Part shown: piece by piece, positions 17,926-51,308 of the stretch
Numbering within the stretch: the first letter of the stretch is position 1
Layout of the letters: the number at the start of each line of letters is the position of its first letter
NCBI GenBank assembly: GCA_944371905.1
Contig: CALVYA010000002.1
Span: forward strand, 17,303-81,302
Length of the DNA: 64,000 bases
Source: an uncultured Bacilli bacterium
GTDB lineage: Bacteria; Bacillota_I; Bacilli_A; RF39; UBA660
Direction: 5' to 3'
Translations under genes and position numbers: made by a program
The notes under the pieces: generated by a model
What the model saw: the letters and a program-made list of their open reading frames with translations, nothing else
Told to the model about the DNA's origin: nothing
The model's database searches: none

Positions 17926-18048
17926 TTCTATGTCCTCCCTTCGCCTATATCTAGTATAGACTTGCTCCGCATGAATAACCTGATTTTTTATACCAACTTA
18001 ACCTGGCGTATCAGCAACCTCACACATCTAAGCAGCCACACAGTTAAA

Positions 18049-18078
18049 AGTATATCATAGTTATCAAGGATTTGGCAA
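18049..18078 (-). promoter_or_regulatory. putative sigma-A promoter of the S10 operon
   Basis: The minus strand reads TTGCCA-18 nt-TGATATACT (extended -10). This leaves a 5' leader of about 120 nt that is relatively GC-rich (17926-18048). Confidence 0.5.
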
Positions 18079-18307
18079 GGAAAAATTGTATTTTTTTAAC
18101 CATTTTTTTAAAACTCTCATTAAACAAATCGCCATATTCTTATTTTATTATATTTCATACTTATCATTTCCATATTATATACTAGAAAAATCTATACTTT
18201 AATCAAGCCAAACTTCTTATTACAATAATAATATGAATTACTATTGTTTTAAATTTTAAAATAACATTTTACTTTCATTTGATGGATAACATTATATTTT
18301 CAAAAAA

Positions 18308-18335
18308 GTAGACATTAAATATTTTTAGTGTCTAC
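18308..18335 (-). terminator. terminator of 160-aa paralog 1
   Basis: gtagaca/tgtctac stem with a T-run on the minus strand. It isolates the island from the S10 promoter. Confidence 0.6.
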
Positions 18336-18351
18336 TTTTAAAATTAGTCAT

Positions 18352-18834
18352 TTATTCTAAATTATATTTCTTATTATAATATGCTATTCTGTCCTTATCG
18401 TTTAAAAACTCTTCTACAATCTTATCCAAGTCAATTTCTTTTAGTTCTTCTTTATCAAAATAATATTCTATATTATTTTTTTCACATAATTTTTTTGCTC
18501 TCACTATTAATTCATTATCTTCAAAATCGTCCCATTGTTTTTCTAAATTATAATCTATTACAAAATTATGAAGTGCAGAACCATATTCTTTAAAATCATC
18601 CAAATATCGTTGAAATATCTTATCATACTCTTTAGTTTTTATTGTGTCATAAAATTTCTTGCAAATTAATAGATACTGAGCATAATCAATTTTATCTACA
18701 AAAATATAATCTTCTTTATTTGTTATTTCTTTCTCATATTCATACTCATCAATTAATTCAGAGGTATATTTATTAATATATAAATCTGGATCAAGATACA
18801 AATTATAAGCTATTTTATATATATTTATTTTCAT
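18352..18834 (-). CDS. hypothetical protein, 160-aa family (paralog 1), immunity-like
   Basis: Paralog of 19082..19564, with an identical C-terminus (FLNDKDRIAYYNKKYNLE). Small, acidic, no signal peptide. It lies in the toxin-downstream island. Confidence 0.65.
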   Translation of the reverse strand: MKINIYKIAYNLYLDPDLYINKYTSELIDEYEYEKEITNKEDYIFVDKIDYAQYLLICKKFYDTIKTKEYDKIFQRYLDDFKEYGSALHNFVIDYNLEKQWDDFEDNELIVRAKKLCEKNNIEYYFDKEELKEIDLDKIVEEFLNDKDRIAYYNKKYNLE

Positions 18835-19037
18835 TACAATACTCCTTTACTCTTTTTTATAAAATTGAACTTTATATATTAATTTATTAATATTTTTACT
18901 CCAAATCATAATTAGGCACATATTCATTTAATTTATTGAAATTTTCTTGTCATAAGTATACCATAGATTGGTATTATTTTAAATTCTAAGATTATATATT
19001 ACTTACATTTGATGAATAGTATTATATTTTCAAAAAA

Positions 19038-19065
19038 GTAGACATTAAATATTTTTAGTGTCTAC
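19038..19065 (-). terminator. terminator of 160-aa paralog 2
   Basis: Identical copy of the 18308-18335 hairpin. Confidence 0.6.
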
Positions 19066-19081
19066 TTTTAAAATTAGTTAT

Positions 19082-19564
19082 TTATTCTAAATTATATTTC
19101 TTATTATAATATGCTATTCTGTCCTTATCGTTTAAAAACTCCTCTGCAAACTTATCCAAGTCAAAATTATTTTGTTCTTCTTTATTAAAATAATATTCTA
19201 TATTATTTTTTTCACAAAAACTTTTAGCTATTGTCATTAATTCTTTCTCTTTAAACTCTTCCCAGTCATTTTCTAAATCATAATCTATTACAAAATTATG
19301 AAGTGCAGAACCATATTCTTTAAAATCATTCAAATAGTTATTAAATAATTTATCGCATTGTTTATTTCTAATTGTATTATAAAATTTCTTACATATTGAT
19401 ATATATTGTTCATAGTCTACAGTATCTACTAATATATAATCTTCTTTATTTTTTATATTTTTTTCATAATCATATTCATCACAAACTTCTGCAGTATATT
19501 TATTAATATACAATTTTCCACTAGCACATAAACTAGCTACTAATCTACATATGTTTATTTTCAT
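19082..19564 (-). CDS. hypothetical protein, 160-aa family (paralog 2), immunity-like
   Basis: Same length as 18352..18834 and collinear with it, with roughly 60% identity by eye. Confidence 0.65.
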   Translation of the reverse strand: MKINICRLVASLCASGKLYINKYTAEVCDEYDYEKNIKNKEDYILVDTVDYEQYISICKKFYNTIRNKQCDKLFNNYLNDFKEYGSALHNFVIDYDLENDWEEFKEKELMTIAKSFCEKNNIEYYFNKEEQNNFDLDKFAEEFLNDKDRIAYYNKKYNLE

Positions 19565-19650
19565 GGTACCATCCTATCTAAAAGCAAAAGCAGTATTAAA
19601 GCAAAGATAATATTATTTCATTATAATTAATATAACATATAAAATTAAAA

Positions 19651-19680
19651 AGTAGAATAAGCTGTTTTCTTATTACTACT
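19651..19680 (-). terminator. terminator after the DUF5071-like gene
   Basis: agtagaataag/cttattactact stem (1-nt bulge) followed by a T-run on the minus strand. Confidence 0.5.
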
Positions 19681-19700
19681 TTTTATTAGTAACTTAATTT

Positions 19701-20147
19701 TTACATATCTGTGGAAGATGATAATATTCTATATACTTCTTTATCATTAAAATCATCAATATTTAATTTATTTTTTTCCATAAACTCCCTTAACCAATAT
19801 AACCATCCAATATCATTTTCTGTTTTAGCTTTCTTTGTGACAATTTCTAGATTTTCAATCATTATCTCTCTTGGTAAATTCGATAAAAATTCCACTATTT
19901 CATCAGATCCTGGCCAATTCATATCTTGCAACCATATAAACATTTCTGGTAAAATATCTTTTACTTTAGGATATCCTCTTGTTATTAGTATTTTTGCCTC
20001 ATCTTCCCACGACCATTTTCCGCCTTTTAAAACAAATAATTTATTTTCATATCTTTCGTCTTTTGCTAACTCTTGAATATTTTCTTTTCGTCTTTCCATT
20101 GGTAAACCAGGATGTAATAACTCTTTGTATCTATCTTGATTTTCCAT
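19701..20147 (-). CDS. DUF5071-like protein (polymorphic-toxin immunity-type)
   Basis: FIWLQDMNWPGSDEIVEFL resembles the conserved (L)QDxNWPG core of DUF5071 (recollection, not searched). Confidence 0.55.
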   Translation of the reverse strand: MENQDRYKELLHPGLPMERRKENIQELAKDERYENKLFVLKGGKWSWEDEAKILITRGYPKVKDILPEMFIWLQDMNWPGSDEIVEFLSNLPREIMIENLEIVTKKAKTENDIGWLYWLREFMEKNKLNIDDFNDKEVYRILSSSTDM

Positions 20148-20322
20148 ATTTTTTATTTACCTACCTCTCTCATTAAAAAATTATATTATTATATCAATTC
20201 TACATAATTATTCTTTGATCATTGATTCTATTTTTTTCTTACACTTTATTATTCAATACCTAAAGTAATATTAATATCAATATAAATCAATTTATAATAT
20301 TTTCCTTTCTAATAAATAATGT

Positions 20323-21030
20323 TTAAGATTTATAGTCATATTCATATTCTATAATTTTTAATGTACATATGTTAGGATCGTATAACATAGCTGTGATATG
20401 ATATGTTCCACTTTCTTTTGGTACTATATTATGTTCTTGTAATTCATCAATGTATACTGAATAATAGCAATTATCCTGATTGTCATAACATCCCAAAAAA
20501 ACAGGTACAAAAACCTTTAATTTAGAACTTAATTTATTTTGAGAAAACCAACAATTATTTTCTTTTATGCTTGAATAAAATTTGGTTGCTTCTTTTTCGT
20601 TAGTAAACCAAAAAGTACTAAATACATATTCTTCATTTTCTTCCCCACTTCTATTAAATTTTCCATAACTAGGAAGCTCTACTTTTATTAGTTCGCTATA
20701 TACATTGATTTCATTGTAATTAAATTCATTACCACTTTTGTACATAATAGATATCTCCAATAGCAAAATGACAATTACTATATATCCTATTTTTATATTG
20801 TTTGCACGTTTTATTCCTTTTTTCTTATATACTGTTCCTAAAATAATTGATAAAACTGGAATGAATAGAAATACGAGTGGCATCCAAAAAACAGTATGAA
20901 AAAATTCTGCTGGAACATTTTTAACATACATATAAATCCAAACAAAAAATATACATACAATTGGACAAGAAATAGAAAGAAAAGACAATAATTCTAGAAC
21001 TATTTTTCTTTTATTTGTACTATTATTCAT
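20323..21030 (-). CDS. membrane protein, P-family paralog 1 (3-4 TM plus a conserved C-terminal domain)
   Basis: Shares ...FTNEKEA.KFY..IK.N..W......S.L....P......CYYS.YI.E......P...G.YH...M.YD.....L.I.E..Y.Y.. with 21849..22580 and with the C-terminal half of 22778..24070. Confidence 0.7.
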   Translation of the reverse strand: MNNSTNKRKIVLELLSFLSISCPIVCIFFVWIYMYVKNVPAEFFHTVFWMPLVFLFIPVLSIILGTVYKKKGIKRANNIKIGYIVIVILLLEISIMYKSGNEFNYNEINVYSELIKVELPSYGKFNRSGEENEEYVFSTFWFTNEKEATKFYSSIKENNCWFSQNKLSSKLKVFVPVFLGCYDNQDNCYYSVYIDELQEHNIVPKESGTYHITAMLYDPNICTLKIIEYEYDYKS

Positions 21031-21033
21031 AAA

Positions 21034-21825
21034 TCACTTCTCCAAATCTATATTTAATTTTTTTAGTTGATTAATATAGTATATACATTCTTTGTTTTGG
21101 AAGACATAGGAAGCATACTTTTTCATATTCTCATCATCATTGAGTTTATAATAAACATTAGTTAAATAAAAACTATAGATTACTTTATTTAATTTAGTAG
21201 TTGTTGTATTCAATAATTCTAAATAAAATTTTTCTGTTTCTTTTAAATTGTTTTTTGTAGGTTTTTTTAATTTTTCTAAAAAAATTAATTGTGTATATTT
21301 TAATGTAACAACTTCTCTTATTTTTTTATTAAATTTTGATGTTTCTAACATTTTTTTGGCGTTATTTAATAATTCATTATATTTATCAATATTATCCAAT
21401 TCCCAATAAGCTCTTGCTAAATCAAGTAAGAATTCTATTTGATAAAACCTAGGTAATATATTCAATGGTATTTGATTAAAAAGACTTAAAACTTTATTAA
21501 ATTCGCCTAAACATAAATAACCTGATGATAAATTAAGTCTTATAAAAGAATCTACTTTTAAGTTTTTATTTGTCAATAATTTTTGTTCATATATTGAAAT
21601 AAATTCTTTTATTTTAAGTTCATCACAAAATAAATTACTTATTTTAAGTGTTCTTTTAGTAGCTATATTATTTAATACTATAGTAATTAAAATTGCATAA
21701 ATAATTAATATAATCCAAAAAATTGCGTTAAAATTAAAAACTAATGAAAGTATAAATAAAATAACAATACCAATACTTAAGATTACATAATATAAATATT
21801 CTAAGTCCTTATATAAACCTATCAT
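21034..21825 (-). CDS. membrane-anchored helical-repeat (TPR-like) protein
   Basis: Two N-terminal TM helices followed by about 190 aa of helical-repeat-like sequence. It is 3 nt upstream of P-family paralog 1. Confidence 0.55.
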   Translation of the reverse strand: MIGLYKDLEYLYYVILSIGIVILFILSLVFNFNAIFWIILIIYAILITIVLNNIATKRTLKISNLFCDELKIKEFISIYEQKLLTNKNLKVDSFIRLNLSSGYLCLGEFNKVLSLFNQIPLNILPRFYQIEFLLDLARAYWELDNIDKYNELLNNAKKMLETSKFNKKIREVVTLKYTQLIFLEKLKKPTKNNLKETEKFYLELLNTTTTKLNKVIYSFYLTNVYYKLNDDENMKKYASYVFQNKECIYYINQLKKLNIDLEK

Positions 21826-21848
21826 TATTACACCTCTTCTTTATTTTA

Positions 21849-22580
21849 TTATTCTATATAAGCATACATAAATTTTTGAATAGTTAAAGTGGAAGTATCT
21901 AAATCATACATCATAACATTAATATGATAATTTCCTGCCTCTTCAGGGCTAATATTATAATTACCAGTTTCTTTAAAATATATTGAATAATAGCATTGGT
22001 CATTAAATACACTACATTTTAAATTAACGGGTATAATAGTAGATAAATATGAATTCAAATCTTTTTTTGTTAGCCAAATTTGATTATTTTTTATACTATT
22101 CAAAAATTTTTGAGAATCTTCTTTATTTGTAAAAACTATATAATTAGTTACAATTTTAGATGAATCATTTACTACTCTGTAAAATTTACTATTTTTTGGA
22201 ATTTTTTCTTGTATTATTGATTCATAATCTAATATTTCATTATAATTAATTTGGAATGAAGTGATAAATATTAAAGACCCTATTAACAAAAATATACAAC
22301 TTGCAACGATACCAGTTACTATACTATAACCACATTCTATTTCTTTTTGTATATATATCATTCCCAAAATTATAGATAACAATGGAATAGGCAATAAAAG
22401 AAGAAAAATCCAAGAGTATTCAATAATAAAAGGGAAAGCAAACTTTTTTATTTCTAATAAAAACACAATACTTATAATTCCAACGAAAGTCAAAACAAGT
22501 GATAAGATACTTAATATTTTTAAAAATCTCTTAATTATTAATTTATTCATATTATTACAGCTTTTTTTATTCATATACAC
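21849..22580 (-). CDS. membrane protein, P-family paralog 2
   Basis: See 20323..21030. Several in-frame ATGs make the start ambiguous. Confidence 0.7.
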   Translation of the reverse strand: MYMNKKSCNNMNKLIIKRFLKILSILSLVLTFVGIISIVFLLEIKKFAFPFIIEYSWIFLLLLPIPLLSIILGMIYIQKEIECGYSIVTGIVASCIFLLIGSLIFITSFQINYNEILDYESIIQEKIPKNSKFYRVVNDSSKIVTNYIVFTNKEDSQKFLNSIKNNQIWLTKKDLNSYLSTIIPVNLKCSVFNDQCYYSIYFKETGNYNISPEEAGNYHINVMMYDLDTSTLTIQKFMYAYIE

Positions 22581-22590
22581 AGCACCTACA

Positions 22591-22700
22591 GTTTATAAAA
22601 AACAGTATTAACCCAAAAGGTAATACTGCTTCCTTATAAATACTATAACATATAGTAACATAAAATTAAATGTATATCACACTAATTGATTAATAAACAT
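22591..22700. repeat. copy of an RDD-gene 3' end/terminator segment (partner at 25836-25912)
   Basis: gtttataaaaaacagtattaacccaaaaggtaatactgcttccttataaatactataaca... aligns at about 75% with gtttataaagagaatcttaaaccctaaaggtaataccgcttccttatacacattataaca... Confidence 0.6.
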
Positions 22701-22777
22701 TATAAATAAATTTTAGTAAATTTATATATTATAATACAAAAAGTTTGATATAATATATACGTTCGGGAGGTATAGTA

Positions 22778-24070
22778 ATGTTTGAAGTAGAAAAATACCA
22801 AAAAAATTATAATAAAAAAATTGAAATTAAAATAACGTTTGAAGAATACAAAAAAATTAGAGAATATTTTCCATATTATTTCCAAAAACTGTTGATTGTT
22901 ATATCAGCAATTATAATAGTACTTTCTCTCGCGACATTAGTTTCACCTGATCGATTATCTATTGGTGCACTTATTTTAATGGATGTATCTTTTATAATAT
23001 CAACATTTATGATTTTGAAAATAATTGATATTTTTCTTAGAAAACATAGTTATAAAAAACTTACAACTAAATCATTAGATAATATAAATTATACTCTTTA
23101 TTTTTATGATGACTATTTTATAAAAGCCACTGAAAGCATAATACAAAAAATAAAATATAGTTCTATTTGGAAAATTAAAGAAACTAATAGCAACATTTAC
23201 TTATTGATAGATAAAAACAATATTATTCCAATTCAAAAAACTAATTCTAATAACGAAACAATAGAATATATAAAAAATACAATAATAACTAAAAACACTA
23301 ATAAAAAAAGCAAAAAATTTAGATCTACCAAGAATAATTTGGTAAAAGATAACATCCATAATCCAAAAATTGAAAATTTTTTAACCTTATTATTTGTATT
23401 TTCCATTGCCTCAATTTGGATTGGTTTATACCTTTTGGCAATAATAATTGAATTTTTCCATATACCACTACCATTAGCATTTAAATATGGATGGATAGTT
23501 TTAATTGTTTTGCCTATTCCAATATTATCTATTGTTTTAGGAATAATATATAAAAGAAAAAATATAAAATGTACTAAAAATATAGTTGCCGGGTGTATAG
23601 TAAGTATAGTATTATTCTTCATTAGTGCTTTCTCTTTGCTTTTTAATTTTTATTTTAAAACTGATTATGACAATGTACATAGTTATCAAAAAATAATAAA
23701 TGTTAATATTCCTAACAAGGGTATTTTTTACAAAATCAAATGGGATTCAAGTTATTTATTAGAGCATACATCTAATTACATAAGATTCACCAATAAACAA
23801 GACGCTAAAGATTTTTATAATAACATTAAAAATAATGAGATATGGTCTCTAAAAAATAACATTAGTTCTAATCTAAACATTTTAATTCCTACTTCTTTGT
23901 TATGCCAAGCAGAAGATGATCAATGTTACTATTCTATATATATAGATGAAACAACTGATTATAATTCTCTACCAACTAATGATGGTAAATATCATATCAA
24001 AACCATGATGTATGATCCAATTACACGTACTTTAACCATAGAAGAATTTTTATATGAATATCAAAATTAA
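22778..24070 (+). CDS. fusion protein: YcxB-like N-terminal half plus P-family C-terminal half (paralog 3)
   Basis: Residues 1-190 have two TM helices and a YcxB-like pattern (recollection). Residues from about 200 to 430 are collinear with the two P-family proteins. It is the only plus-strand gene in the island. Confidence 0.7.
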   Translation: MFEVEKYQKNYNKKIEIKITFEEYKKIREYFPYYFQKLLIVISAIIIVLSLATLVSPDRLSIGALILMDVSFIISTFMILKIIDIFLRKHSYKKLTTKSLDNINYTLYFYDDYFIKATESIIQKIKYSSIWKIKETNSNIYLLIDKNNIIPIQKTNSNNETIEYIKNTIITKNTNKKSKKFRSTKNNLVKDNIHNPKIENFLTLLFVFSIASIWIGLYLLAIIIEFFHIPLPLAFKYGWIVLIVLPIPILSIVLGIIYKRKNIKCTKNIVAGCIVSIVLFFISAFSLLFNFYFKTDYDNVHSYQKIINVNIPNKGIFYKIKWDSSYLLEHTSNYIRFTNKQDAKDFYNNIKNNEIWSLKNNISSNLNILIPTSLLCQAEDDQCYYSIYIDETTDYNSLPTNDGKYHIKTMMYDPITRTLTIEEFLYEYQN

Positions 24071-24111
24071 ACTAAAAAACAAAAATTTTATCTGAAGTAA
24101 AATTTCAATTT

Positions 24112-25117: not shown

Positions 25118-25486
25118 TCAATCTTTGCAGGATTTGCAAAATTGATTCTTCTTAATGTTCAATTTTTTATCATTAATTTCAACGATATCGCTATTAATCC
25201 ATTTCATATTTGCTTCTGATTCTCTATATTGCCAATATATGTTTTTCACTTTTTGCGTTTCATTATTGACCAATTCTACTCTTAAAGTATAAGCACATGT
25301 TGCACCACAATCAATTAAATATGCCTTCAAGGTATATTCACCATTTGGAGAATCCACACTTGATAAATAATCCCCCTTTGGTAAATCAGACATATCAAAT
25401 TTAATTCTATACACCAAATAAAATAGTACTAATATAAATAAAATTCCCAAAACTAATTTTTGATATTTTTTAATGTTCACTACCAT
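25118..25486 (-). CDS. DUF5412-like small membrane-anchored protein (orphan immunity candidate)
   Basis: An N-terminal TM helix followed by ...SPNGEYTLKAYL.DCGAT..YTLRVELV......KNIYWQY....A.M.WINSD.V.IN... (family assignment from memory). Its start overlaps the toxin fragment by 17 nt. Confidence 0.55.
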   Translation of the reverse strand: MVVNIKKYQKLVLGILFILVLFYLVYRIKFDMSDLPKGDYLSSVDSPNGEYTLKAYLIDCGATCAYTLRVELVNNETQKVKNIYWQYRESEANMKWINSDIVEINDKKLNIKKNQFCKSCKD

Positions 25487-25800
25487 ATTTTATTGCCTCT
25501 AATCTTACAAAATAGCTATCTCGTGAATCGTCACATGCATATGGGGTCAAATATTTATCTACAGTTTCCAACCCATGAGTCCATAATTGATAAAGTCCTC
25601 CCGCTAAAACTAAAGCGCTTGTTGGATATCCAGCAGCTCTACCAATATATCCAAAATGGAAATTACCAAAAGCTTCTCCAGTCATTACTAATCAGTTATA
25701 AGAATATAGTCCTTGCTATTTCAGAGCTTTTGTTGTTATATTCTCCATCATTAGTCACTTGTTGAATAAAATTACACACATCCGGTAATTCTGTTACATC
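25470..25800 (-). pseudogene. orphan polymorphic-toxin C-terminal domain (Ntox44-like), N-terminally truncated and frame-disrupted
   Basis: The 71-aa ORF contains ...EAFGNFHFGYIGRAAGYP...LAGGLYQ...CDDSRDSYFV..A. A further ~38 coding-like codons (..VKDVTELPDVCNFIQQVTNDGEYNNKSSEIARTIFL*) lie upstream in another frame. There is no RHS core or start context. Confidence 0.55.
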
Positions 25801-25897: not shown

Positions 25898-26235
25898 TTA
25901 TTTCACACTGGTATGCATTATTATATCGCCTAAACTTTTATTGTTTATTAAAATCATAAAAATATAAAATGGAATAAGTAATGACGTATAAATTACTCTT
26001 TTAAATGATTTCTTTTTATCTGTTAACCTATTACCAGTTTCATCATATATTTTCAATTTGACAATTTTTTCCCAATACTTTCATAGCCAAAGATAATATC
26101 TTTTACAGCAAATAAACCACACACTAAAATAAATCCAAAAAGTGATAATGCAAATTGAAGTAAGTACCAACAAGGATAAAATATTATATAATAATCAATT
26201 ACCATAGCAATTAATCTTTTTACTTTTATAATCAT
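25898..26235 (-). pseudogene. RDD-family membrane protein gene with a -1 frame break at a homopolymer
   Basis: The 60-aa ORF ends at ...ESIGKKLSN*. The next frame continues KLKIYDETGNRLTDKKKSFKRVIYTSLLIPFYIFMILINNKSLGDIIMHTSVK*. An A7 run instead of A6 (plus-strand T-run at 26065-26070) would fuse them. Confidence 0.6.
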
Positions 26236-26325: not shown

Positions 26326-27204
26326 TTATTTCGTTTCGTCTTTTAAAATCCCTTTTTCTTCTGCAATTTTAAATTCTCTTACAAATTTTTCATCTATTTG
26401 ATCAATATCACTCCATCCAATCATTAATCCATTTGCAATTCTTTCAGGTGGATTTTTATATTTTGGATCTTTCATTATTACTTTAGTTTTAAATCTTTTC
26501 GCTTCTCGTTCCGTAATTGATAATATACTCATAACATTCTCTACACGAGTATACCATTTCCCTGCTTTTCCATAGGATCTTGTTGTTTTTAAAAATTTCA
26601 ATTCTTTTATTATACTTAAATCAGGTTCTGCGTTACCCACCCAGTTATAATATGCAATTACATTCTGTTCATTGGAATATTCCCTTGGCAAACTCCCAAT
26701 ATTTGTTTTCGTGACACACAAAACTCTAAACAATACATATTTATTATACCATTTACTATCCTTAACTTTCTCATTGGTTAATTGATATAATACTACGTCT
26801 CCTTTCTCCCATTGAGCTTTGATTAATTTTCTTTTCGATATTTTTTTCTCTGGAGGTTGTGGGGAATTGAGTTTTTCCATTAATTTATTTAATACTTCTT
26901 TTCTTTTTTCGTATTGTTTTTCGTCCTCTTTCCATCTTTCTAAATCTATTTCTTCTTTTATAAGTTTTATTGCTATATCTTTTACTTCGGGTAATAATCT
27001 TCCATATCTCCACTGTGTATCTGCTAACGCAAACCATGATACTGGTCCATCTTCCTCATCATAAAAATAATCTTCATTTCCCTCTATCAATTCTTCTGTC
27101 GCTTCTATATTAGTTTGACCCATTATTTTTAACCTGTTTATATATTCTTCTCTTATATCACACGCTACATCGTCTTGATATAATCCTACTCCCCATGCTC
27201 CCAT
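26326..27204 (-). CDS. cognate immunity candidate, DUF4259-like N-terminus
   Basis: It begins MGAWGVGLYQDDVACD, which matches the DUF4259 signature GxWGxGxxxxDxAxD (recollection). A strong RBS (aaaaggag) lies 14 nt after the RHS stop. Confidence 0.6.
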   Translation of the reverse strand: MGAWGVGLYQDDVACDIREEYINRLKIMGQTNIEATEELIEGNEDYFYDEEDGPVSWFALADTQWRYGRLLPEVKDIAIKLIKEEIDLERWKEDEKQYEKRKEVLNKLMEKLNSPQPPEKKISKRKLIKAQWEKGDVVLYQLTNEKVKDSKWYNKYVLFRVLCVTKTNIGSLPREYSNEQNVIAYYNWVGNAEPDLSIIKELKFLKTTRSYGKAGKWYTRVENVMSILSITEREAKRFKTKVIMKDPKYKNPPERIANGLMIGWSDIDQIDEKFVREFKIAEEKGILKDETK

Positions 27205-27218: not shown

Positions 27219-30200
27219 TTATCTACACGGCACTACATGTTCAGATGACCATATAACGGCACTATCCCAATACAAATCACGTTTTTTATTTCTAGGTGAA
27301 ACTCCGTTTATTTGATTATTTATAGGATTATTTGTATCCTTATTTAAAGTTCTACAACTTTCGATTATCATTTGTTCTAAACCTCTGGCTGTATCTTTTG
27401 AAACATTCATAGCTATTTCGTCTAATTCTAAATGTCTTCGATATGGATTCTGTCGATGTCTATATTTAGTTGCTGGTAAATCAGTAGTTCTTCCCACATA
27501 TTCGATTTTTTGTGTTAACGGATCATATAAAGTATAAACATTATGATTATTAACATCATTATTGCTTTTCTTTTTAGTATTTTTAACGGCCTTTTTTACA
27601 TTCTTGTATGCATTAATTGAACCTTCTACAGCTCCAACCCCTACCAATAATAATGCCGCGCCTACAGCTCCAACCGCTATTGCTCCTGCTATCATACCTA
27701 AAGATGCTGCAACCCCTGTTAATGCTAATGCAACGTCACCACTATAGTCACTAAAAACAATTGGATTATTACTAACATATATATATAAGTTGTAACCAAA
27801 TATATCTTGATTCGCTCCTAATAATCCATCTGCATTAATAAATCTTCTCCACTCTGGATTATAATATCTACTATTTAAGTAATATAACTCTGTTTCTGTA
27901 TCGTAATAATATCCTCTATATCTAAATGGATTTATAATTCCTATGTGGTTAGTATCACTTATTGCGTTTCCTATAGCATCTTTTGTACTTAATAATTTAC
28001 CCCAACTATCATATTCATAACTTACTATTTGTTCATAATTATCATTTAATATTCCTATGATATCTCCTTGTAAGTTTTTAATATAATAATAAATATTATT
28101 ATTGTATTTTAATCCTACTAATTCATCAGTATCATATAAATAATATATGTAATTATTACCCTTTTTTTCATAAATAATTCTATTGTTATTTAAGAAATAT
28201 TCTGTTTCTATTCCATTAATAATTTTGTTGGTTCTAATACCATTAACATCATATTTGTAAGTGATATTTAAATTTTTAGAAGTATCTGTATAAGAATTTA
28301 AACTTCTACCATTTATCCAACTCATTGAAATATTATTTCCAATAGTTAGTGGGTTACCTATATTATCATAAGTAATGCTTGTGCCATTATAACTTGTTAA
28401 TTGATCTTCCCAATTACTGTTCCCATATTGGTACGTATCCGTCTTTATTATAGCGTTTGTAGTTAAGTTTCTAGTAACTTTAGTCCCCAAATTACCAGAA
28501 TTATCATATGTATAAGTTATTTTCTCATCTTTTTCATAATCTTCTTCTTCAATTAGCTCATTATGAACATCATAGCTATATTTTTTAATTAATTCATCAT
28601 TGTAATATACTTCTGTTATATTGTTTAACTTATCATATTTATAACTATATTTATTAGAACCATTCTTAATTTCTTCTATCAAATCATATGTCCTATTACC
28701 ATTACTAATATATTTATAAGTTGTTTGATATTCTTCTCCTAAAGTTTTACTTATTAATCTTCCTAAACTATCATGTTGATAATTTATTTCTTTATTATCT
28801 AAAGTTACTTTTGTTAATAAATCCTCACTATTAAATGTATTTTCTACTGTATTACTGATATTATCTAATCTATATTGCTTCTTAATAATGTTGTCATTTA
28901 TATCGTATTCATAGTTAGTTCTAAAATTATCATACCTATATTCATGAAGCCTTTCTCCAATATCATATGTATATTTTATCTTATGATTATTTGATAGAAT
29001 TTTAGCTAAATTACCATTATTATCATATTTATAATGATAGGTATCGTCCATCTTTTGAATTGTTTTTATTCGTTCAAAATCATCATAATCAAATGATATT
29101 TCATGGTTATTACCATAAGTTGTTTTAGCTAAATTACCATTATTATCTTCATAATCATTAGTGGATAAAGTAATGTTATTACCAATCATTACTTTTTTAG
29201 TATTTAAAAAGTCATCATAAGCAAAATTATATTCTTTCGTGCCTTGAGTAATTTTACTTAATAAATTTTTATCATTATAACTATAAGAAACACTTTTATT
29301 TGAAGTAGTAACTGACGTAATTTGTTTTTGATCATTATATTGATAATTAGTAGTTACTCCATTGGCATTCGTCATTGAAGTAGTTAAACCAGTTACAGAA
29401 TTGGTTTGATATGTGGTTGTATTAAAATTACTATCTGTTACACTAGTAACAAATCTTCCGTCCTCAGTGTAAGTAGCTGTATTTTCTATGAATTCTTCAT
29501 CAGTGGTTTCAAAATAAAATTCATAAGCAGGATCGCTATATCCTGGAAATTCAGTTGCTTCTAGAGTATTACCATTTACTTTTAAGTATTTAATATCGTT
29601 ATCTACTTTAATAGAGTAACTGCCGTTTTCATTTTTTTCTAAATTGAACAAATTGTTTTGATCACTATATATTAGAAAAACTTGATTATCTAAACAAGAT
29701 AAGGAATAATTTGGTAGAGTTGAATAAATAATTTTGAATTTATCTTCTAACTTTTCTAATGTCCAAATGGTATTACTACAAGCATCTGATTCTACCACCA
29801 GAGCTCTACTTCTTGCTTTTATATATTTATTGGTTCCTTTGCTTCTAATTCTATAGGTACCATTTCCTAATTCATTAACTGATTTTTTAGACATTCTAGT
29901 TAAAACTGGATTACCAAAAGAATCATATTGTATTTGATTGGATATGCCATAGGATGATATAGTGCTTAATACTCGATCCGTCTTAATGTTATCATACTCA
30001 AATTTAAAATTCTTTCCTTTAGGGTTTGTAGCATTAATTAATTGATTATTATTATCATAACCAAACATATTGCTATTATCTTTAAAAGAATCTTTCACAT
30101 TCGTTATATTACCACTTTCATCATAAATATAATTGCTATTAGCTAAATCCTTATAAAAAGTTAAGTTAGTAATATAAAAGTTATTAGCTTCTCTTCCTTG

Positions 30201-33200
30201 ATTAAACATTAATTTAATAGATTCATAGTCTTGTTCTGCCGTATATCTAAAAGTAAAATATTGCCAAATATTTGGATTTGGATTAAATTCTTCACTTGGT
30301 AAAATACAATAATCCGCTTCACTTCCTACTGGTTTAAAATATATCATTACTGAATTCCCAACAATATTTCCATCACTTTTAAAACCTTCGTTTTTATACC
30401 AAAATGAAATGTTATAAATGTCTCCTTGTTTTCCTTTTATTGGGAATGTTTTACTAAATCTTGTTCCATATAAAGGATTCATTTTCACTTTTAAAGCTTG
30501 ATTTTGATTATTATTGATATTTACTACTTCAAAGAAATTGGAAGCATTAGGGCTACTTTCGCCATCATATCCCCACGATTCAAAATTCCAATCAGATAGG
30601 CCCTGTGAAAAATCAGAGTTTTCAATAACGTTATAGCAATTTGCTACTTCTCCTTCCTCTAGTTGAATATTATCCATATATAAAGTAGTAGCATCTGATA
30701 AATTAAGTTTGATCTTTAAATTACTTGTTGCGTTTTCGTCATAATAAATAGTTACATCTTCTCTAATAAAATCCTCCGAAGATTCTATTGTTTGATCACT
30801 AGTTACTGTATTGTTATTTGAATCTACATAACTTAAAGATAAAGTAATTGGTTGATCTGATTTAAAATATCCGCTAAAAGTATAATATTTCCCTTTAGCA
30901 AGAGTAATCTCTTGTTCTACTTCTTGATTAGTAGCAATGCTTTCTAGTTTTAAACTTCTGTTACCAGAATATACTTGTTCCGTTGAAAAACTTTTAGTAA
31001 TGCCTTCACTTATGGTAAAATTATCATTATCTTGTTCAAAACTAGTATTTGATAAATAATTTTTTACGTACCTTGTGGGAATACTATTAGACAACAATTT
31101 GTTTTTGTTATAATTGGCTTCTCCATATTCTTGAGTTATAGAGTAGGCACTACTAATATCTTCACTTGATTTTAAATTATTGCTAGATAATAAATTCCCT
31201 TGATTGTTAAAAATTAAAGTACTAACTTTTCCTTTATGATCCGTAATACTAGTAGTATTACATCCATATTCTAAAGAAAAATAATTTCCTAGTTTATTAT
31301 TCAATCCATACTGAGTGACTTTTTTCATTTTATATGGTGATTCGCTATAATATTCATAATTAATTTTTATCCCTGTTACATCAGTAATACTCGATATTAA
31401 ATGATTGTTATTATAAGTAAAATTAGTAGTACCATTTATACTTTTTATGGAGGTTAGTATTCCATTAGTATATGTTAATTCAACACTAATGTCAGGACTA
31501 GTTACCGTAATTTTATTAGTGTCATAAGTAAAGTTAATCTCTTTTTCATTAGCATCTATTACTTTAGTAATTCTATTATTTGAATCTAATTGAATGGTAT
31601 TAATGTTTCCACTAACATCTTTCATTTCAATTAAACGATATACCTCTCCTGTTTTTGTAAAAGTCTTTTTGTTGCCAACTTTGTCGGTCATGATATAATC
31701 ATTATCATTTTTTTCAAGAGTTAAATTTAACCCATCCTCATCATGATATTTAACTAAGTCATCTCCCTCTTCTTTATTGAAATAATGACTAGTTCCATCT
31801 TCATCTACATATTCTATATAATCTACGTTATCAATAGATACTTCTTCTAAAGTTTGATCCAAGTTAAGTTTATATCCTCTACCATAGATAGTAGTATTGT
31901 TTAATACAGCATCATTAGTATTATAAATTAACTTCACACTAGTTGGTAATTTTCCTCCTATTGTAGATCCTAAATGAAAGACTGCTGTCATATTACCATT
32001 GTAAGTATTTATATAAGTATTACCATCCGTAAAACTTTGAGTATTATAATTTAAATAGTTTTCTAATCCATTTTGATTACGATAGACTAGTTGAAATAAA
32101 GGCATTGGATTATAATCCCCTGGGGTATTATTATTTTTAGAATAAAAAGCCGGATAATCATCATCGATATATACTTCCTTAGCAGATTTTAAAAGTAATC
32201 CATAGTTTTTAGTATCTTTATACCATCGTTTTACTAAATTAGTAATATCACCATCATATAATCCATGTGTAGGATATACAACAAAATTTAAGTTATCATC
32301 TAAATCTATATCGCTTCTACTTCCATAATAAATGCTTTCCACTCTACTATCATATTTATTATTCATCTGAGCCCAAGTAGCACTAGTTTCATTCCAATCT
32401 TGTGTTACCCGATGCATAGTAACTAATTTATTACCTGTTTTATTCCCACTATAACTAGCATATCCAGTTAAAGTTAAATAGGCTCCAATAATTTCACTCC
32501 CAGTTCCTATTTCTGGTAAATCAAATTTTATTAAAGTTCTATTAACTCTATTTGTACCATTTACTTTTTCTACACCCGCTTTTAAAATAGGAGCGCTATT
32601 ACGATCAATACCTGTATCTCCTGGAAAAATATAAGTATCTTGTAGGCTACTACTTTGATTAGTATTAGTAATCGTTGGATCAATATAAACTGGATATTTT
32701 GTATCTTTAGCACTTAACCATTCTTTATCTAATAGTAGTTCTAGTTCATACGCCTTGTCCAAATGCCTAAGCACATAAGAAACCTTTTGATTCACAATTC
32801 CCTTACTATCTTCCATGTAAGGTTTATCTATAGTAAAAACAGTTTGATGATTATCTATAGCTAAAATAGTTCCATTTTCTTCTTTTAAAGTTAAATTAGT
32901 ATATATAACAAAAGTTAATTTTTCTATTGGATTATTTTTCAAAATAATTGTCTCTTTTATTTTTGTTGGTAAAGTTTTATAATCTATATCTATGTTATTC
33001 AATATATTATTATAATAAACATCTTCTACAAATTTATTTAATTTGATTTTTTTATTAAATTTAACATTGTTAGATTCTTTTAATTTCATATCAAGATAAT
33101 TATTATCTTTTACAATTTTAATTAAAGAATCTTTACTGCATTCTTTAAAAAACACTTTATAATCATTACTCTTATTCACATAACAATCTTTTTCTTTTAT

Positions 33201-33344
33201 TAAGGTATTATCTATTTCCTCATATCTACCATTTTTTTGGTAATGAATATCTGTATCATATATTTTTGCTATTATAGTGCCATCTTCACGTAGATAGTGC
33301 TTTTCCCTTGGTCTTCTTTTATGAATTAATTCTATTTCTTTCAT
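27219..33344 (-). CDS. RHS/YD-repeat polymorphic toxin (2041 aa) with a GIY-YIG-like C-terminal nuclease
   Basis: Numerous YD-type repeats (Y.YD..GNL...). Core end is ..PFRYRGYYYDTETELYYLNSRYYNPEWRRFINADG...NNPIVFSDYSGD. Other parts: a DNRLRE-like N-terminal domain (aa ~230-340), two CBM-like modules (aa ~760-1065), a beta-trefoil-like insert (aa ~1160-1265) and a 171-aa C-terminal tail containing VYTLYD..KIEYVGRT. Confidence 0.9.
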   Translation of the reverse strand: MKEIELIHKRRPREKHYLREDGTIIAKIYDTDIHYQKNGRYEEIDNTLIKEKDCYVNKSNDYKVFFKECSKDSLIKIVKDNNYLDMKLKESNNVKFNKKIKLNKFVEDVYYNNILNNIDIDYKTLPTKIKETIILKNNPIEKLTFVIYTNLTLKEENGTILAIDNHQTVFTIDKPYMEDSKGIVNQKVSYVLRHLDKAYELELLLDKEWLSAKDTKYPVYIDPTITNTNQSSSLQDTYIFPGDTGIDRNSAPILKAGVEKVNGTNRVNRTLIKFDLPEIGTGSEIIGAYLTLTGYASYSGNKTGNKLVTMHRVTQDWNETSATWAQMNNKYDSRVESIYYGSRSDIDLDDNLNFVVYPTHGLYDGDITNLVKRWYKDTKNYGLLLKSAKEVYIDDDYPAFYSKNNNTPGDYNPMPLFQLVYRNQNGLENYLNYNTQSFTDGNTYINTYNGNMTAVFHLGSTIGGKLPTSVKLIYNTNDAVLNNTTIYGRGYKLNLDQTLEEVSIDNVDYIEYVDEDGTSHYFNKEEGDDLVKYHDEDGLNLTLEKNDNDYIMTDKVGNKKTFTKTGEVYRLIEMKDVSGNINTIQLDSNNRITKVIDANEKEINFTYDTNKITVTSPDISVELTYTNGILTSIKSINGTTNFTYNNNHLISSITDVTGIKINYEYYSESPYKMKKVTQYGLNNKLGNYFSLEYGCNTTSITDHKGKVSTLIFNNQGNLLSSNNLKSSEDISSAYSITQEYGEANYNKNKLLSNSIPTRYVKNYLSNTSFEQDNDNFTISEGITKSFSTEQVYSGNRSLKLESIATNQEVEQEITLAKGKYYTFSGYFKSDQPITLSLSYVDSNNNTVTSDQTIESSEDFIREDVTIYYDENATSNLKIKLNLSDATTLYMDNIQLEEGEVANCYNVIENSDFSQGLSDWNFESWGYDGESSPNASNFFEVVNINNNQNQALKVKMNPLYGTRFSKTFPIKGKQGDIYNISFWYKNEGFKSDGNIVGNSVMIYFKPVGSEADYCILPSEEFNPNPNIWQYFTFRYTAEQDYESIKLMFNQGREANNFYITNLTFYKDLANSNYIYDESGNITNVKDSFKDNSNMFGYDNNNQLINATNPKGKNFKFEYDNIKTDRVLSTISSYGISNQIQYDSFGNPVLTRMSKKSVNELGNGTYRIRSKGTNKYIKARSRALVVESDACSNTIWTLEKLEDKFKIIYSTLPNYSLSCLDNQVFLIYSDQNNLFNLEKNENGSYSIKVDNDIKYLKVNGNTLEATEFPGYSDPAYEFYFETTDEEFIENTATYTEDGRFVTSVTDSNFNTTTYQTNSVTGLTTSMTNANGVTTNYQYNDQKQITSVTTSNKSVSYSYNDKNLLSKITQGTKEYNFAYDDFLNTKKVMIGNNITLSTNDYEDNNGNLAKTTYGNNHEISFDYDDFERIKTIQKMDDTYHYKYDNNGNLAKILSNNHKIKYTYDIGERLHEYRYDNFRTNYEYDINDNIIKKQYRLDNISNTVENTFNSEDLLTKVTLDNKEINYQHDSLGRLISKTLGEEYQTTYKYISNGNRTYDLIEEIKNGSNKYSYKYDKLNNITEVYYNDELIKKYSYDVHNELIEEEDYEKDEKITYTYDNSGNLGTKVTRNLTTNAIIKTDTYQYGNSNWEDQLTSYNGTSITYDNIGNPLTIGNNISMSWINGRSLNSYTDTSKNLNITYKYDVNGIRTNKIINGIETEYFLNNNRIIYEKKGNNYIYYLYDTDELVGLKYNNNIYYYIKNLQGDIIGILNDNYEQIVSYEYDSWGKLLSTKDAIGNAISDTNHIGIINPFRYRGYYYDTETELYYLNSRYYNPEWRRFINADGLLGANQDIFGYNLYIYVSNNPIVFSDYSGDVALALTGVAASLGMIAGAIAVGAVGAALLLVGVGAVEGSINAYKNVKKAVKNTKKKSNNDVNNHNVYTLYDPLTQKIEYVGRTTDLPATKYRHRQNPYRRHLELDEIAMNVSKDTARGLEQMIIESCRTLNKDTNNPINNQINGVSPRNKKRDLYWDSAVIWSSEHVVPCR

Positions 33345-33360: not shown

Positions 33361-33906
33361 TTACTGAATACGTTTCCAAATATAAACAGCTAAATATGGC
33401 GGCATATTATTATGAGGTTGATTACCTCCGGTATTGGTTGTGTAATGTACTCCTGTATTTTTATCTGCATTGTAAGTCCAATATACTCCAGTTGCTCTTC
33501 CTGCTTCCCACTGTGCTTGAAATCTATGATTATGACTAGGCATTTGTGCAACCGTTAAGGTTACTTCCTTTTCTCCACCAGTACTTCCTAATGGATAATC
33601 AGTACTTGCTGCATACAAAAATACATCTTCTATTCTTTCCCAAGCACCTCCAAAAATAGTAGTTGGATTAGTATCATTTACACTCATATAAATAGAGCCT
33701 ATAGGATATAGATAATTAAGCATTGCTTGCGTTGGTAAAATACCTTCTTCTGTTGTAAGGGTCTTTACTGTTAAATTACCATCACTATCTAATTCAAATT
33801 TATTATTAGTAGAAGTAATACAAGTAGCTTTTAAATTATTAATTTCTAAATTGGTTTGTTCTCCTTCTTTACTGAAAGAATCAATAATATAATTATGTTC
33901 GTTCAT
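33361..33906 (-). CDS. phage tail-fibre/baseplate C-terminal (tail-collar-like) domain protein
   Basis: LYPIGSIYMSVNDTNP..IFGG.WERI...TGGEKEVTLTVAQMPSHNH...GGNQPHNNMPPYLAVYIWKR is the classic tail-collar pattern. Its stop is 16 nt before the RHS start. Confidence 0.7.
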   Translation of the reverse strand: MNEHNYIIDSFSKEGEQTNLEINNLKATCITSTNNKFELDSDGNLTVKTLTTEEGILPTQAMLNYLYPIGSIYMSVNDTNPTTIFGGAWERIEDVFLYAASTDYPLGSTGGEKEVTLTVAQMPSHNHRFQAQWEAGRATGVYWTYNADKNTGVHYTTNTGGNQPHNNMPPYLAVYIWKRIQ

Positions 33907-34039
33907 TTTTTTCCCTCTTTCTTTTTTTGTTTGTTTTATATTTTATAATTATTCTTCTATTCATCCCCTTTCACTACAATATATTTAGTCAAGAAAAAAA
34001 GAATCATAATATTTGCCACTCATGAAAACGCACAAAAAA

Positions 34040-34068
34040 AGAACTAAAGCTTGTTATACCTTAGTTCT
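34040..34068 (-). terminator. terminator after the S41 peptidase gene
   Basis: agaactaa/ttagttct stem followed by T7 on the minus strand. Confidence 0.6.
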
Positions 34069-34090
34069 TAACTTATTTTTTATTTAATTT

Positions 34091-45709: not shown

Positions 45710-45785
45710 ATTCTTGCCAATAAGTTTTTAAAATCTCTATAATATCCATATTTCCATATTCTTCAATGATTATATAATCTTTCAT
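45693..45785 (-). CDS. 30-aa acidic mini-ORF upstream of recombinase 1 (candidate accessory or directionality factor)
   Basis: Hand translation: MKDYIIIEEYGNMDIIEILKTYWQECDYDE*. It overlaps the recombinase start. The same arrangement occurs in elements 2 and 3. Confidence 0.4.
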   Translation of the reverse strand: MKDYIIIEEYGNMDIIEILKTYWQECDYDE

Positions 45786-45817
45786 ATTATCAACTCAATA
45801 AAAAATATGCAAAAAAA

Positions 45818-45842
45818 ATATTATTAGAATTTCTAATAATAT
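45818..45842 (-). terminator. terminator between the cargo operon and the recombinase operon of element 1
   Basis: atattattagaa/ttctaataatat palindrome followed by T8 on the minus strand. Confidence 0.55.
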
Positions 45843-46720: not shown

Positions 46721-47324
46721 TTTGATTCTCCTTTTCTTTTCTATTATTAATAATTAATGTTTTGACCTTATCCATTAATTCATTATTAGCTTCTTCCAAA
46801 GAATTTGTTTTTATTTTATACGGTTTCCCAAAACAAATAGTAATTTGATTTTTCCTAAAAATTTTATATTTACCAGTAATAGAAAATGGCACTATAGTAC
46901 TATTGGTTTTTGAAGCCATAGATACTGCACCAAACTTAAATGGCATAATAACATCCTTCGTTCTATTGAATGTGCCTTCAGGAAAAATACCAATTAATTT
47001 TTGATCTTTTAATACTTTAATAGCTTTTTTCAAGGCTTCATGATCCTTTTGTCTCCTATTAACAGGAATGCAAGCCATGGCTTTAAAAAAAGGGGTTCCC
47101 AGACCTTTAAACAGTTCATCTTTTGCTAAAAAATGAATTGTTCTTTTTGTAGTACAAAACAATAAAGGAATATCCAAAATATTAGTATGATTTCCACAGA
47201 TTACAACAGAACCTTTTTTAGGAATATTTTCATTACCTATGATAGTAGGACGATACACAACTCTAAATAATCCATTGACAATTGGTCTTAAAATTCTATA
47301 TAGTATAGCATCTTTTTTTTCCAC
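46710..47324 (-). CDS. 1-acyl-sn-glycerol-3-phosphate acyltransferase family (PlsC-like)
   Basis: HX4D motif (NHTNILD) and FPEGT motif. Confidence 0.8.
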   Translation of the reverse strand: MEKKDAILYRILRPIVNGLFRVVYRPTIIGNENIPKKGSVVICGNHTNILDIPLLFCTTKRTIHFLAKDELFKGLGTPFFKAMACIPVNRRQKDHEALKKAIKVLKDQKLIGIFPEGTFNRTKDVIMPFKFGAVSMASKTNSTIVPFSITGKYKIFRKNQITICFGKPYKIKTNSLEEANNELMDKVKTLIINNRKEKENQNEK

Positions 47325-47380
47325 ATCTACACCTCTATTAATGATTACATTTATATTATAACACGTTATATTAATTATTT

Positions 47381-47399: not shown

Positions 47400-47405
47400 A
47401 GCAGG

Positions 47406-51300: not shown

Positions 51301-51308
51301 GAGAAAAA

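Follow-up and report, generated by a model that had tools for sequence, protein, structure and literature searches.

A giant RHS toxin without an export signal and its phage fibre-like partner gene in an uncultured gut-type Bacilli genome

How does a giant toxin leave the cell that makes it when it carries no recognizable export signal? The question is raised by the gene for a 2041-amino-acid (aa) RHS protein in a 64,000-nucleotide (nt) stretch of DNA from an uncultured Bacilli bacterium (contig CALVYA010000002.1, positions 17,303 to 81,302), referred to here as the window. The gene belongs to a three-gene operon that comprises a phage-fibre-like accessory gene, the RHS toxin gene, and an immunity gene in an uncultured low-GC, gut-type Bacilli genome. 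The toxin itself is of a known kind, a member of the RHS polymorphic-toxin family whose C-terminal tip is of the Tox-URI1/GIY-YIG class. On balance, we lean towards seeing the locus as a variant of this known kind in which release, by lysis, and targeting, by the fibre-like partner, are both phage derived. For the window locus we infer this delivery route, and no lysis or secretion genes were found in the ~82 kb inspected.

The operon and the missing export signal

The features on which the argument rests are the following.

33361..33906, minus strand: accessory gene, 181 aa, neck and head (Gp10_C) of a phage receptor-binding protein (Pfam Gp10_C, E 2e-23; PHROG tail and tail-fibre families)
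27219..33344, minus strand: RHS/YD-shell polymorphic toxin, 2041 aa (open reading frame and translation; RHS_repeat, RHS_core, YD_repeat_2x, and Rhs_assc_core; PDB shells 8h8a and 7q97)
26326..27204, minus strand: putative cognate immunity gene, 292 aa (start 14 nt past the RHS stop; linked to the same tip in other loci)
34039..34069, minus strand: terminator-like hairpin after the upstream ctpB-like gene (12-pair stem, then a T-run)
32661..33344, minus strand: N-terminal beta-sandwich domain of the RHS protein, aa 1-228, with no signal peptide and no Pfam family (hydropathy, phrog_37549, and AlphaFold2 [AF2] model)

The RHS gene is a single unbroken open reading frame (ORF) of 2041 codons and the longest reading possible, given that an in-frame TAA lies five codons 5' of the ATG and the start cannot move upstream; a Shine-Dalgarno-like AAGGAAGTGG precedes the ATG. 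Because an identical protein is encoded on at least nine metagenomic contigs, the ORF is real and not an assembly artefact. The longest of these contigs is a 97.7-kb ENA scaffold that includes the window. The hairpin and T-run set the Gp10_C-RHS-immunity transcription unit apart from the ctpB-like gene upstream. An Rfam scan of the window returned no RNA element, and a promoter scan was uninformative in this AT-rich DNA (GC about 21-33%), with 82 sites against 73 expected.

The preliminary description of the locus, made from the sequence alone, saw no signal peptide, LXG/WXG domain, or PAAR domain in the N-terminus of the toxin, and hydropathy analysis together with Pfam and NCBIfam scans bears this out. 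The first 80 aa are hydrophilic (maximum Kyte-Doolittle [KD] 19-residue mean of -0.17), the 12-residue hydropathy maximum is 0.48 over the first 70 window starts, and the Pfam and NCBIfam scans detected no LXG, WXG, PAAR, or other secretion domain in the protein. All database relatives in which the N-terminus is present begin at the same Met.

What the toxin begins with instead is a conserved family of ~230 aa that matches phrog_37549 (E 6e-12). This PHROG corresponds to gp18 of Bacillus phage PBC1, the product of the gene directly after the tape-measure gene, and the gp18 homology spans both the N-domain and the CBM96 carbohydrate-binding module that follows it. An AF2 model of aa 1-440 is all-beta, with a predicted local distance difference test score (pLDDT) of 89, and the best BFVD match of the N-domain is a 1379-aa gut siphovirus protein (E 2e-28, template modelling score [TM] 0.70). 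The N-domain was also considered as a Dit, other baseplate, or secretion fold; Foldseek returned only CBM96-type sandwiches and uncharacterized phage proteins. In two database proteins (P0016 and P0023) the N-domain is joined to sigma-70 regions 2-4, and the junction in the alignment resembles a chimeric or miscalled gene, not a true fusion.

One genome per species was scanned, which yielded 72 related loci (given L numbers below), most of them in metagenome-assembled genomes (MAGs) labelled uncultured Bacilli, "Tenericutes," Mycoplasma sp. CAG:776, or Acholeplasma sp. CAG:878. At 57 loci, the RHS protein lacks a signal peptide and starts directly at the N-domain. This domain comes after a classical signal peptide in Faecalimonas, Clostridium tunisiense, Christensenella, and other distant relatives. 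Eight signal-bearing relatives were scored (Faecalimonas, Erysipelotrichaceae, Clostridium, Acholeplasmataceae, Vulcanibacillus, and other Clostridia/Bacillota MAGs), and their signal peptides have visible n-, h-, and c-regions and a 12-residue hydropathy of at least 2.2; the Christensenella relative, which is outside these eight, also shows a signal peptide before the N-domain.

The fibre-head partner, lysis genes, and the route of delivery

The first gene of the operon encodes a product without a signal peptide that has the neck and head of a phage receptor-binding protein. With this partner as query, tblastn matched 725 phage records, and the partner is 46% identical to the antireceptor of Lactobacillus phage Ld3. 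In Streptococcus phage Javan65, Gp10_C forms the C-terminus of a protein whose gene comes after those for the tape measure, a hypothetical protein, and an endopeptidase. A gene ending in Gp10_C lies 0-510 nt upstream of the RHS gene, on the same strand, at 54 of 56 signal-less loci, compared with none of the eight scored signal-bearing ones. Among 33 short partners the most conserved block lies in the N-terminal neck (FT..G..NLE.NNL...CITS..N.F.LDS.GNL.V). At the prophage loci described below, the heads of the short partner and of the tail fibre of the neighbouring prophage share 58-68% identity. A conserved neck with a variable head is the pattern that would be expected of a docking end and a receptor-binding end. 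The domain calls of the preliminary description were confirmed, and the gene that it passed over, the one for Gp10_C, is the most informative clue to delivery.

At 19 loci, a 116-135 aa coiled-coil ORF without a Pfam or PHROG match lies between the Gp10_C and RHS genes (including L025, L027, L028, L030, L032-L038, L044, L046, L051, L052, L054, and L056), usually together with a 155-162 aa Sigma70_r4_2 protein encoded upstream of the Gp10_C gene. The two genes may form a dedicated late-type regulator pair. Hidden Markov models (HMMs) built from the relatives found neither gene in the window.

Lysis genes are a second recurrent neighbour. Within fetched flanks of up to 10 kb, holin and/or endolysin genes occur at 23 of the 57 signal-less loci (~40%) and at 0/8 scored signal-bearing loci; the families are the TcdE-family holin PF05105, the phrog_443 holin, the M23 peptidase PF01551, and the GH25 muramidase PF01183. 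Four loci (L039, L043, L048, and L049) and two IMG/VR viral contigs have a prophage context with the gene order major tail protein, (unassigned ORFs), phrog_1194 protein, tail protein, a 650-aa fibre ending in Gp10_C, small membrane proteins, M23 peptidase, short Gp10_C protein, and RHS. The Gp10_C-RHS pair here sits in the cargo position after the prophage lysis cassette. A phage-borne RHS gene of another type is found in the complete Anaeroplasmataceae phage NatCom_34063 (PV036447), which encodes a signal-less RHS protein of 1836 aa annotated as "hypothetical" (L087:7297-13473). It has a Gly/Ala-rich hydrophobic tip, is followed by a protein with multiple transmembrane segments, and has a different N-terminus and no Gp10_C partner.

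The surroundings of the window operon were inspected in the precomputed Pfam annotation of nearly all of the window plus ~18 kb of flanks, i.e., ~82 kb of the 97.7-kb contig. The preliminary description stated that the window holds no secretion genes and left the delivery route open; the annotation agrees with the former, and for the window the latter was correct. It also recommended a search for export genes beyond the window. That search has covered the ~82 kb of contig, with no T7SS (type VII secretion system) or holin-like gene among the annotated families. HMMs made from the holin, endolysin, and regulator genes of the relatives had no match in the window.

Lysis is the proposed means of release, with analogies in YenTc and its type X secretion system (T10SS), in TcdE, and in the phage-borne RHS cassette of APSE-3, all of which are compared below. 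In the delivery route that we favour, the toxin would fold in the cytoplasm with its nuclease enclosed in the shell and neutralized by the immunity protein, and would exit when a subpopulation of producers lyses, either through a phage-type holin and endolysin in the manner of a T10SS or through prophage induction. In the genome of the window, the lysis function would need to be supplied in trans. The free particle would then bind wall glycans of a competitor through its lectin modules and the trimeric fibre-head partner. The product of autoproteolysis by the core aspartyl protease would be released, a hydrophobic helix would engage the target membrane and carry the nuclease inside, and the nuclease would cut DNA in the target cell.

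A wider form of this proposal is more tentative, and we would put it forward as possible though somewhat doubtful. The RHS toxins of this clade, which occur in over 50 species-level genomes of gut Bacilli that are uncultured, might have exchanged Sec export for a phage-derived kit. In it, a receptor-binding head that arose by duplication from a siphophage fibre would dock on the cocoon and set specificity, and a lysis cassette or prophage induction would release the complex. With the same reserve, the module might travel as prophage cargo in some lineages and could even ride on virions, which would make it a "tail-less tailocin," meaning a free RHS particle steered by a phage fibre.

Several observations weigh against delivery by lysis and a fibre head. 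At 34 of the 57 signal-less loci there is no lysis gene within fetched flanks of up to 10 kb, and the annotation of the ~82 kb of contig contains no T7SS, T6SS (type VI secretion system), holin, endolysin, or tail genes and no prophage structural genes, in the window or beyond it. Proximity of the pair to lysis cassettes may simply reflect carriage by mobile elements. Loss of the signal peptide and presence of the partner probably became linked only once, in the ancestor of one clade, and the counts given above are therefore not independent of one another. Finally, the N-domain is retained in signal-bearing relatives and is therefore not specific to the partner.

Other explanations would account for the same operon differently. 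A dedicated exporter could be encoded elsewhere in the genome, for instance, a T7SSb variant that accepts a non-LXG N-terminus, which has been proposed for Listeria LrhA, with the Gp10_C or the helical ORF as adaptor or chaperone. Our view of the genome is limited to part of one contig, T7SS toxins as a rule have small accessory genes upstream, and 19 loci have the small coiled-coil ORF between Gp10_C and RHS; PMC10327511, discussed in PMC12704120, describes signal-less Rhs proteins near an EssC variant. We nevertheless consider such an exporter unlikely. The N-terminus is all-beta and has no LXG, WXG, or helical targeting domain, the conserved partner, whose homologues are beta-rich, is the receptor-binding head of a phage and not a WXG100-like helical hairpin, neither EssC nor WXG100 is among the recurrent neighbour families of the 72 loci or in the window Pfam annotation, and a folded shell of ~230 kDa would make an improbable T7SS substrate. 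Alternatively, the RHS protein and its fibre-like partner could be structural passengers of a phage or tailocin particle, with the N-domain mounted on the baseplate. The homology of the N-domain and CBM96 module to PBC1 gp18 and to the gut siphovirus protein would fit such a role, as would the complete siphophage tail module and lysis cassette that precede the pair in L039, L043, L048, L049, and the two IMG/VR contigs, and phage PV036447 with its signal-less RHS protein. The pair nonetheless stands after the lysis cassette, in the cargo position and outside the tail module; the window and most related loci are without tail genes, Sec-exported chromosomal relatives have the same N-domain, and no Dit, Tal, or baseplate-attachment fold was found. 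This makes a structural passenger quite improbable.

It is very improbable that the protein is never deployed outside the cell, whether as a cytoplasmic factor (for example, in abortive infection, with the fibre-like protein sensing or mimicking phage parts) or as the decaying relic of a once Sec-exported WapA. Apart from the missing export signal, what speaks for this is the state of the neighbourhood, where a split RDD gene and an orphan Ntox44 fragment are eroded. The 6.1-kb ORF, on the other hand, is intact; up to the core end it shares 84-97% identity with its orthologue, after which the tip has been cleanly swapped, and some 40 relatives of ~2000 aa are likewise unbroken. Four lectin-type modules are of use only in the extracellular space, and the tips of 35 proteins form 21 clusters, each accompanied by immunity-type genes, as is typical of interbacterial competition. 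No PADLOC defence family matched; in a search with all three operon proteins, PADLOC gave 0 matches, and a role in anti-phage defence was set aside.

Shell, nuclease tip, and tip exchange

The remaining modules of the RHS protein, from the N-terminal side to the C-terminus, are as follows.

32109..32654, minus strand: DNRLRE / CBM96 carbohydrate-binding domain, aa 231-412 (NF033679, PF24517, Foldseek)
30600..31076, minus strand: CBM_4_9 jelly-roll module 1, aa 757-915, inserted in the YD shell (PF02018)
30120..30602, minus strand: CBM_4_9-like module 2, aa 915-1075, divergent (PF02018 below cutoff; hhalign to module 1)
29565..29867, minus strand: ricin-type beta-trefoil lectin module, aa 1160-1260 (PF14200)
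27738..28013, minus strand: RHS-associated core, aa 1778-1869, ending ..NNPIVFSDYSGD (TIGR03696 Rhs_assc_core, E 4e-17)
27618..27734, minus strand: hydrophobic Gly/Ala-rich helix, aa 1871-1909, then a Lys-rich linker (hydropathy)
27222..27548, minus strand: GIY-YIG (Tox-URI1-type) nuclease domain, aa ~1933-2041 (family, AF2 model, and residues Y1937, Y1949, R1962, H1963, E1990, and N2010)

Identification as an RHS shell comes from the whole-protein scan (RHS_repeat PF05593, E 4e-32; also TIGR01643 and a partial match to NF041261), and the best PDB sequence matches are the T6SS Rhs shells 8h8a and 7q97. The module calls of the preliminary description, i.e., a DNRLRE-like domain, two CBM4/9-like modules, a beta-trefoil-like segment between YD blocks, and a canonical RHS core end, were all recovered, with evidence of differing kinds. 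The DNRLRE domain matches NF033679 (aa 236-412, E 2e-23) and CBM96 PF24517 (E 2e-8), and the second half of the AF2 model of aa 1-440 superposes in Foldseek on the solved CBM96 structures 8wab and 7vbo (TM 0.64-0.68). Scanned alone, module 1 matches PF02018 above the cutoff (E 4e-8, 34.2 bits versus 25.9). Module 2 does not (E 0.004), nor does any of its copies in 12 homologues (0/12), and BLASTP found no match between the two modules; it is profile-profile comparison with hhalign that links module 2 to module 1 (probability 91%, E 1e-6, with 44-47 relatives per profile). The trefoil segment, also scanned alone, exceeds the gathering score of RicinB_lectin_2 PF14200 (E 7e-6, 27.1 bits versus 25.6). 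Since the CBM modules are kept in 44-47 relatives and the trefoil segment in 44 of 54 long relatives, the lectin-type inserts are a stable part of the shell across the clade.

The core end ..NNPIVFSDYSGD, at the close of the TIGR03696 match, is presumed to be the autoproteolytic plug and, likewise, the recombination breakpoint. Directly after it comes the sole strongly hydrophobic region of the protein: the five top KD 19-residue windows all fall in aa 1882-1906, with a peak of 2.44. Across 35 relatives, the post-core ~60 aa contain a hydrophobic helix in 11, and the other sequences listed have mostly Lys-rich helices. This division after the ..NNP[IV]..D..G core end holds whatever the toxin type, and the Lys-rich helices are strongly cationic and amphipathic, for example, SLKSIKKAIKKGLKKIVNSAKKIINSVKKIV. 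The recurrence suggests that the post-core segment may be a shared membrane-active pre-toxin element.

The preliminary description matched the 171-aa tail as a whole to the GIY-YIG fold. The GIY-YIG tip stands; a single domain does not, and the tail divides into the helix (aa ~1871-1909), the Lys-rich linker, and a domain of ~105 aa. Direct sequence searches of this tip against Pfam, PHROG, and PDB gave nothing significant, and the assignment was made through the tip family. Two results count against it: the window tip has no Pfam match at E<=1 and lies below every GIY-YIG threshold, and the Foldseek E-values of its model are all at least 0.13. The best PHROG match is weak (phrog_16880 "endonuclease," E 0.02), and the profile of the tip family against PDB found only SLX1 and BH0048 (E 0.16-0.44). 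An exhaustive profile search collected 949 cluster representatives of the family; in the matches listed, the domain is at or near the C-terminus, and several hosts are ~2000 aa long. Among 33 full-length members, PF01541 matches 14 (best E 9e-6) and RHS_repeat 23. The structure prediction that had been called for yielded a GIY-YIG-like fold (pLDDT 95.6, from 82 sequences) with the order beta-beta-alpha-beta-alpha-alpha. Its top 10 Foldseek matches in PDB are all UvrC GIY-YIG domains (probability 0.66-0.93, TM 0.43-0.58), followed by PD-T4-3 and Slx1.

Residue conservation is the other pillar of the assignment. The equivalents of Y1937, Y1949, G1951, R1952, H1963, E1990, and N2010 are 97-99% conserved among 152 aligned members. 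The GIY/YIG hairpin reads VY(1937)TLY ... EY(1949)VGRT, with family positions Y14, Y26, G28, and R29 kept in 148-151 of the 152, and H1963, E1990, and N2010 are kept in 150-151. The pattern fits the signature Y, YxG, R, [RK]xxE, N that Zhang et al. (2012, PMC3482391) gave for Tox-URI1 toxins of RHS proteins. The arginine of helix 1 stands at column 36 or at column 39 of the 152-member family, never at both: the pairs (R,A), (T,R), (A,R), and (P,R) occur 83, 36, 3, and 1 times, respectively. An Arg at column 36 pairs with A, Q, or E at 39, and one at column 39 with T, A, or P at 36. The window tip is of the column-39 type, with T1959 and R1962 (aa 1959-1963, window ~27454..27468). This mutual exclusivity argues for catalytic constraint on the site in both subfamilies, and the helix-1 Arg looks like a catalytic residue that has migrated by one helical turn. 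Family membership, the model, and the invariant residues together support the tip as a predicted GIY-YIG nuclease with all of the family-invariant residues.

The 292-aa ORF starts behind AAGGAG, 14 nt past the RHS stop. Homologues of it come immediately after the same tip in L021, which has two copies, and in L029; in L018 a homologue lies behind an orphan tip fragment, and L007 and L024 retain eroded or orphan copies. A DUF4259 assignment was tried for this protein, and the match is weak (one of six homologues, E 0.001), so the family was left unassigned. The gene co-varies with the GIY-YIG tip, as expected of an immunity gene, and its role is putative.

An exchange of tips can be followed in a sister genome. 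L007 (L007:3823-11545, uncultured Bacilli MAG CALVKH010000034) has the orthologous ctpB-Gp10_C-RHS synteny, and its upstream ctpB gene is 87% identical to that of the window. Identity between the two RHS proteins is 84-97% as far as aa ~1860 and about 20% in the remainder, with the fall from 97% to 20% coming exactly at the core end. Behind the RHS gene of L007 stands a small gene of a different kind, and downstream the 292-aa gene survives as a copy with an internal deletion. The pair of tip and immunity gene has been swapped at the core boundary in a clean C-terminal displacement. The 35 full-length relatives contain 21 unrelated tip clusters.

Downstream of the operon are two further features.

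25118..25685, minus strand: orphan module, a 71-aa Ntox44 tip fragment (25470..25685; PF15607, weak) and a DUF5412 gene (25118..25486; PF17428, E 2e-35)
25898..26235, minus strand: RDD-family membrane protein gene, split into two ORFs (family HMM matches both halves)

The Ntox44 fragment overlaps the start of the DUF5412 gene, and no RHS-core remnant lies upstream of it. The RDD gene of the window has suffered a frameshift and a short deletion when compared with its L007 orthologue, which is intact at 125 aa and matches PF06271. Members of this family lie downstream of RHS genes in several loci, and the split gene is probably an eroded orphan immunity gene. Further on, window positions 18000..24100 form an island of very low GC (21-22%) with a DUF5071 gene, two 160-aa paralogues, and three YcxB-like membrane paralogues (20323..21030, minus strand; 21849..22580, minus strand; and 22778..24070, plus strand). 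Because YcxB-like genes stand behind RHS genes at five other loci as well, this may be a poly-immunity island. Together, the tip clusters and the downstream remnants are a classical case of C-terminal displacement that has left an immunity "graveyard."

Elsewhere, the annotation of the window and its contig flanks shows housekeeping genes, namely, pcrA, ligA, the S10/spc/alpha ribosomal operons, and secY. Genes for three large serine recombinases, all on the minus strand (44309..45709, 47662..49296, and 58596..60185), lie in a region (44309..60185) that also contains HTH, DnaB_C-like, Ltp-lipoprotein, and TM2 genes. This region looks like one or more integrated mobile elements, at 11-27 kb from the RHS operon.

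Relation to known toxin systems

Among known systems, WapA of Bacillus subtilis and Streptococcus suis (PMC12704120) shares the YD shell, core, polymorphic tip, downstream immunity gene, and orphan modules, and the S. suis protein likewise begins with an unknown N-terminal domain followed by a DNRLRE domain (PMC12704120). The difference lies in export and anchoring. WapA has a Sec signal peptide and LysM/cell wall-binding domains, whereas the window protein and ~56 relatives have neither (for the window protein by hydropathy, Pfam, and NCBIfam), and what the clade has in their place is a neighbouring Gp10_C gene and a shell with lectin modules inserted. At its tip, the window toxin agrees with Tox-URI1 (PMC3482391) in residue signature, C-terminal position in RHS proteins, and adjacent immunity gene. 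It departs from Tox-URI1 in that the helix-1 Arg of its subfamily (40 of 152 members) has moved by three residues, with T/A/P at column 36 and R at column 39, and in that its immunity family, a 292-aa protein with weak likeness to DUF4259, does not appear to be among the Imm families listed there.

For release, the closest parallels are signal-less giant toxins of other groups. YenTc of Yersinia entomophaga is released via a T10SS (PMC10847048), and the clostridial toxins TcdA and TcdB are released via the TcdE holin (PMC3369941). Like these, the window toxin is very large and without a signal peptide; YenTc includes an RHS cocoon, and, as with TcdE, PF05105 holin and endolysin genes adjoin the toxin genes in many relatives. 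Unlike them, the window has no lysis gene and no TcA-like translocator, its Gp10_C partner has no counterpart there, and its likely targets, as the immunity gene and nuclease tip indicate, are other bacteria and not animal cells. The linkage by which a T10SS is recognized, a holin or hydrolase gene nearby, is absent from the window and the inspected contig and present at 23 of the 57 signal-less relatives. In the APSE-3 phages of Hamiltonella, a phage-borne RHS cassette stands beside lysis genes (PMC7313666). The likeness is one of layout, a small signal-less hypothetical gene and then an RHS-repeat toxin as variable cargo by the holin/lysozyme region; the APSE RHS protein differs in having a signal peptide, is thought to act on insect parasitoids, and belongs to phages of a gammaproteobacterial host. 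MuF toxins, according to PMC5576092, are Bacillota prophage toxin/immunity modules with a phage-structural N-domain and no signal peptide, which the window toxin resembles. It differs in having an RHS shell and an N-domain that is tail-like, not head-like, and Pfam and PHROG detected no MuF (Phage_Mu_F) domain in it. Hallmarks of the remaining classes were not found either: there are no SpvB or TcdB_toxin_midN Pfam domains in the RHS protein and no TcA-like gene in the neighbourhood (Tc BC), no PAAR domain in Pfam and NCBIfam scans (T6SS Rhs effectors), and no LXG/WXG domain in the protein or WXG100/EssC gene in the window annotation (T7SS LXG/WXG toxins).

How signal-less RHS and teneurin-like toxins are delivered in Gram-positive bacteria is stated to be unresolved (PMC13018210 and PMC12704120), and in the literature searched we found no description of a signal-less RHS clade that is defined by an adjacent phage receptor-binding-head gene and in which linkage to holin/endolysin genes or prophages is frequent. 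Textbook polymorphic-toxin biology already covers the toxin, its tip family, and tip swapping, and the tip adds a clean natural example of a catalytic Arg moved by one helical turn. On the question of delivery, the clade offers three testable handles, namely, a conserved fibre-head gene by the toxin gene, frequent linkage to TcdE-family holin, M23, and GH25 genes, and loss of the signal peptide in partner-bearing loci. If the partner does set the target range, the complex would be a modular, retargetable protein antibiotic and a further case in which phage parts are reused in bacterial warfare without a tail.

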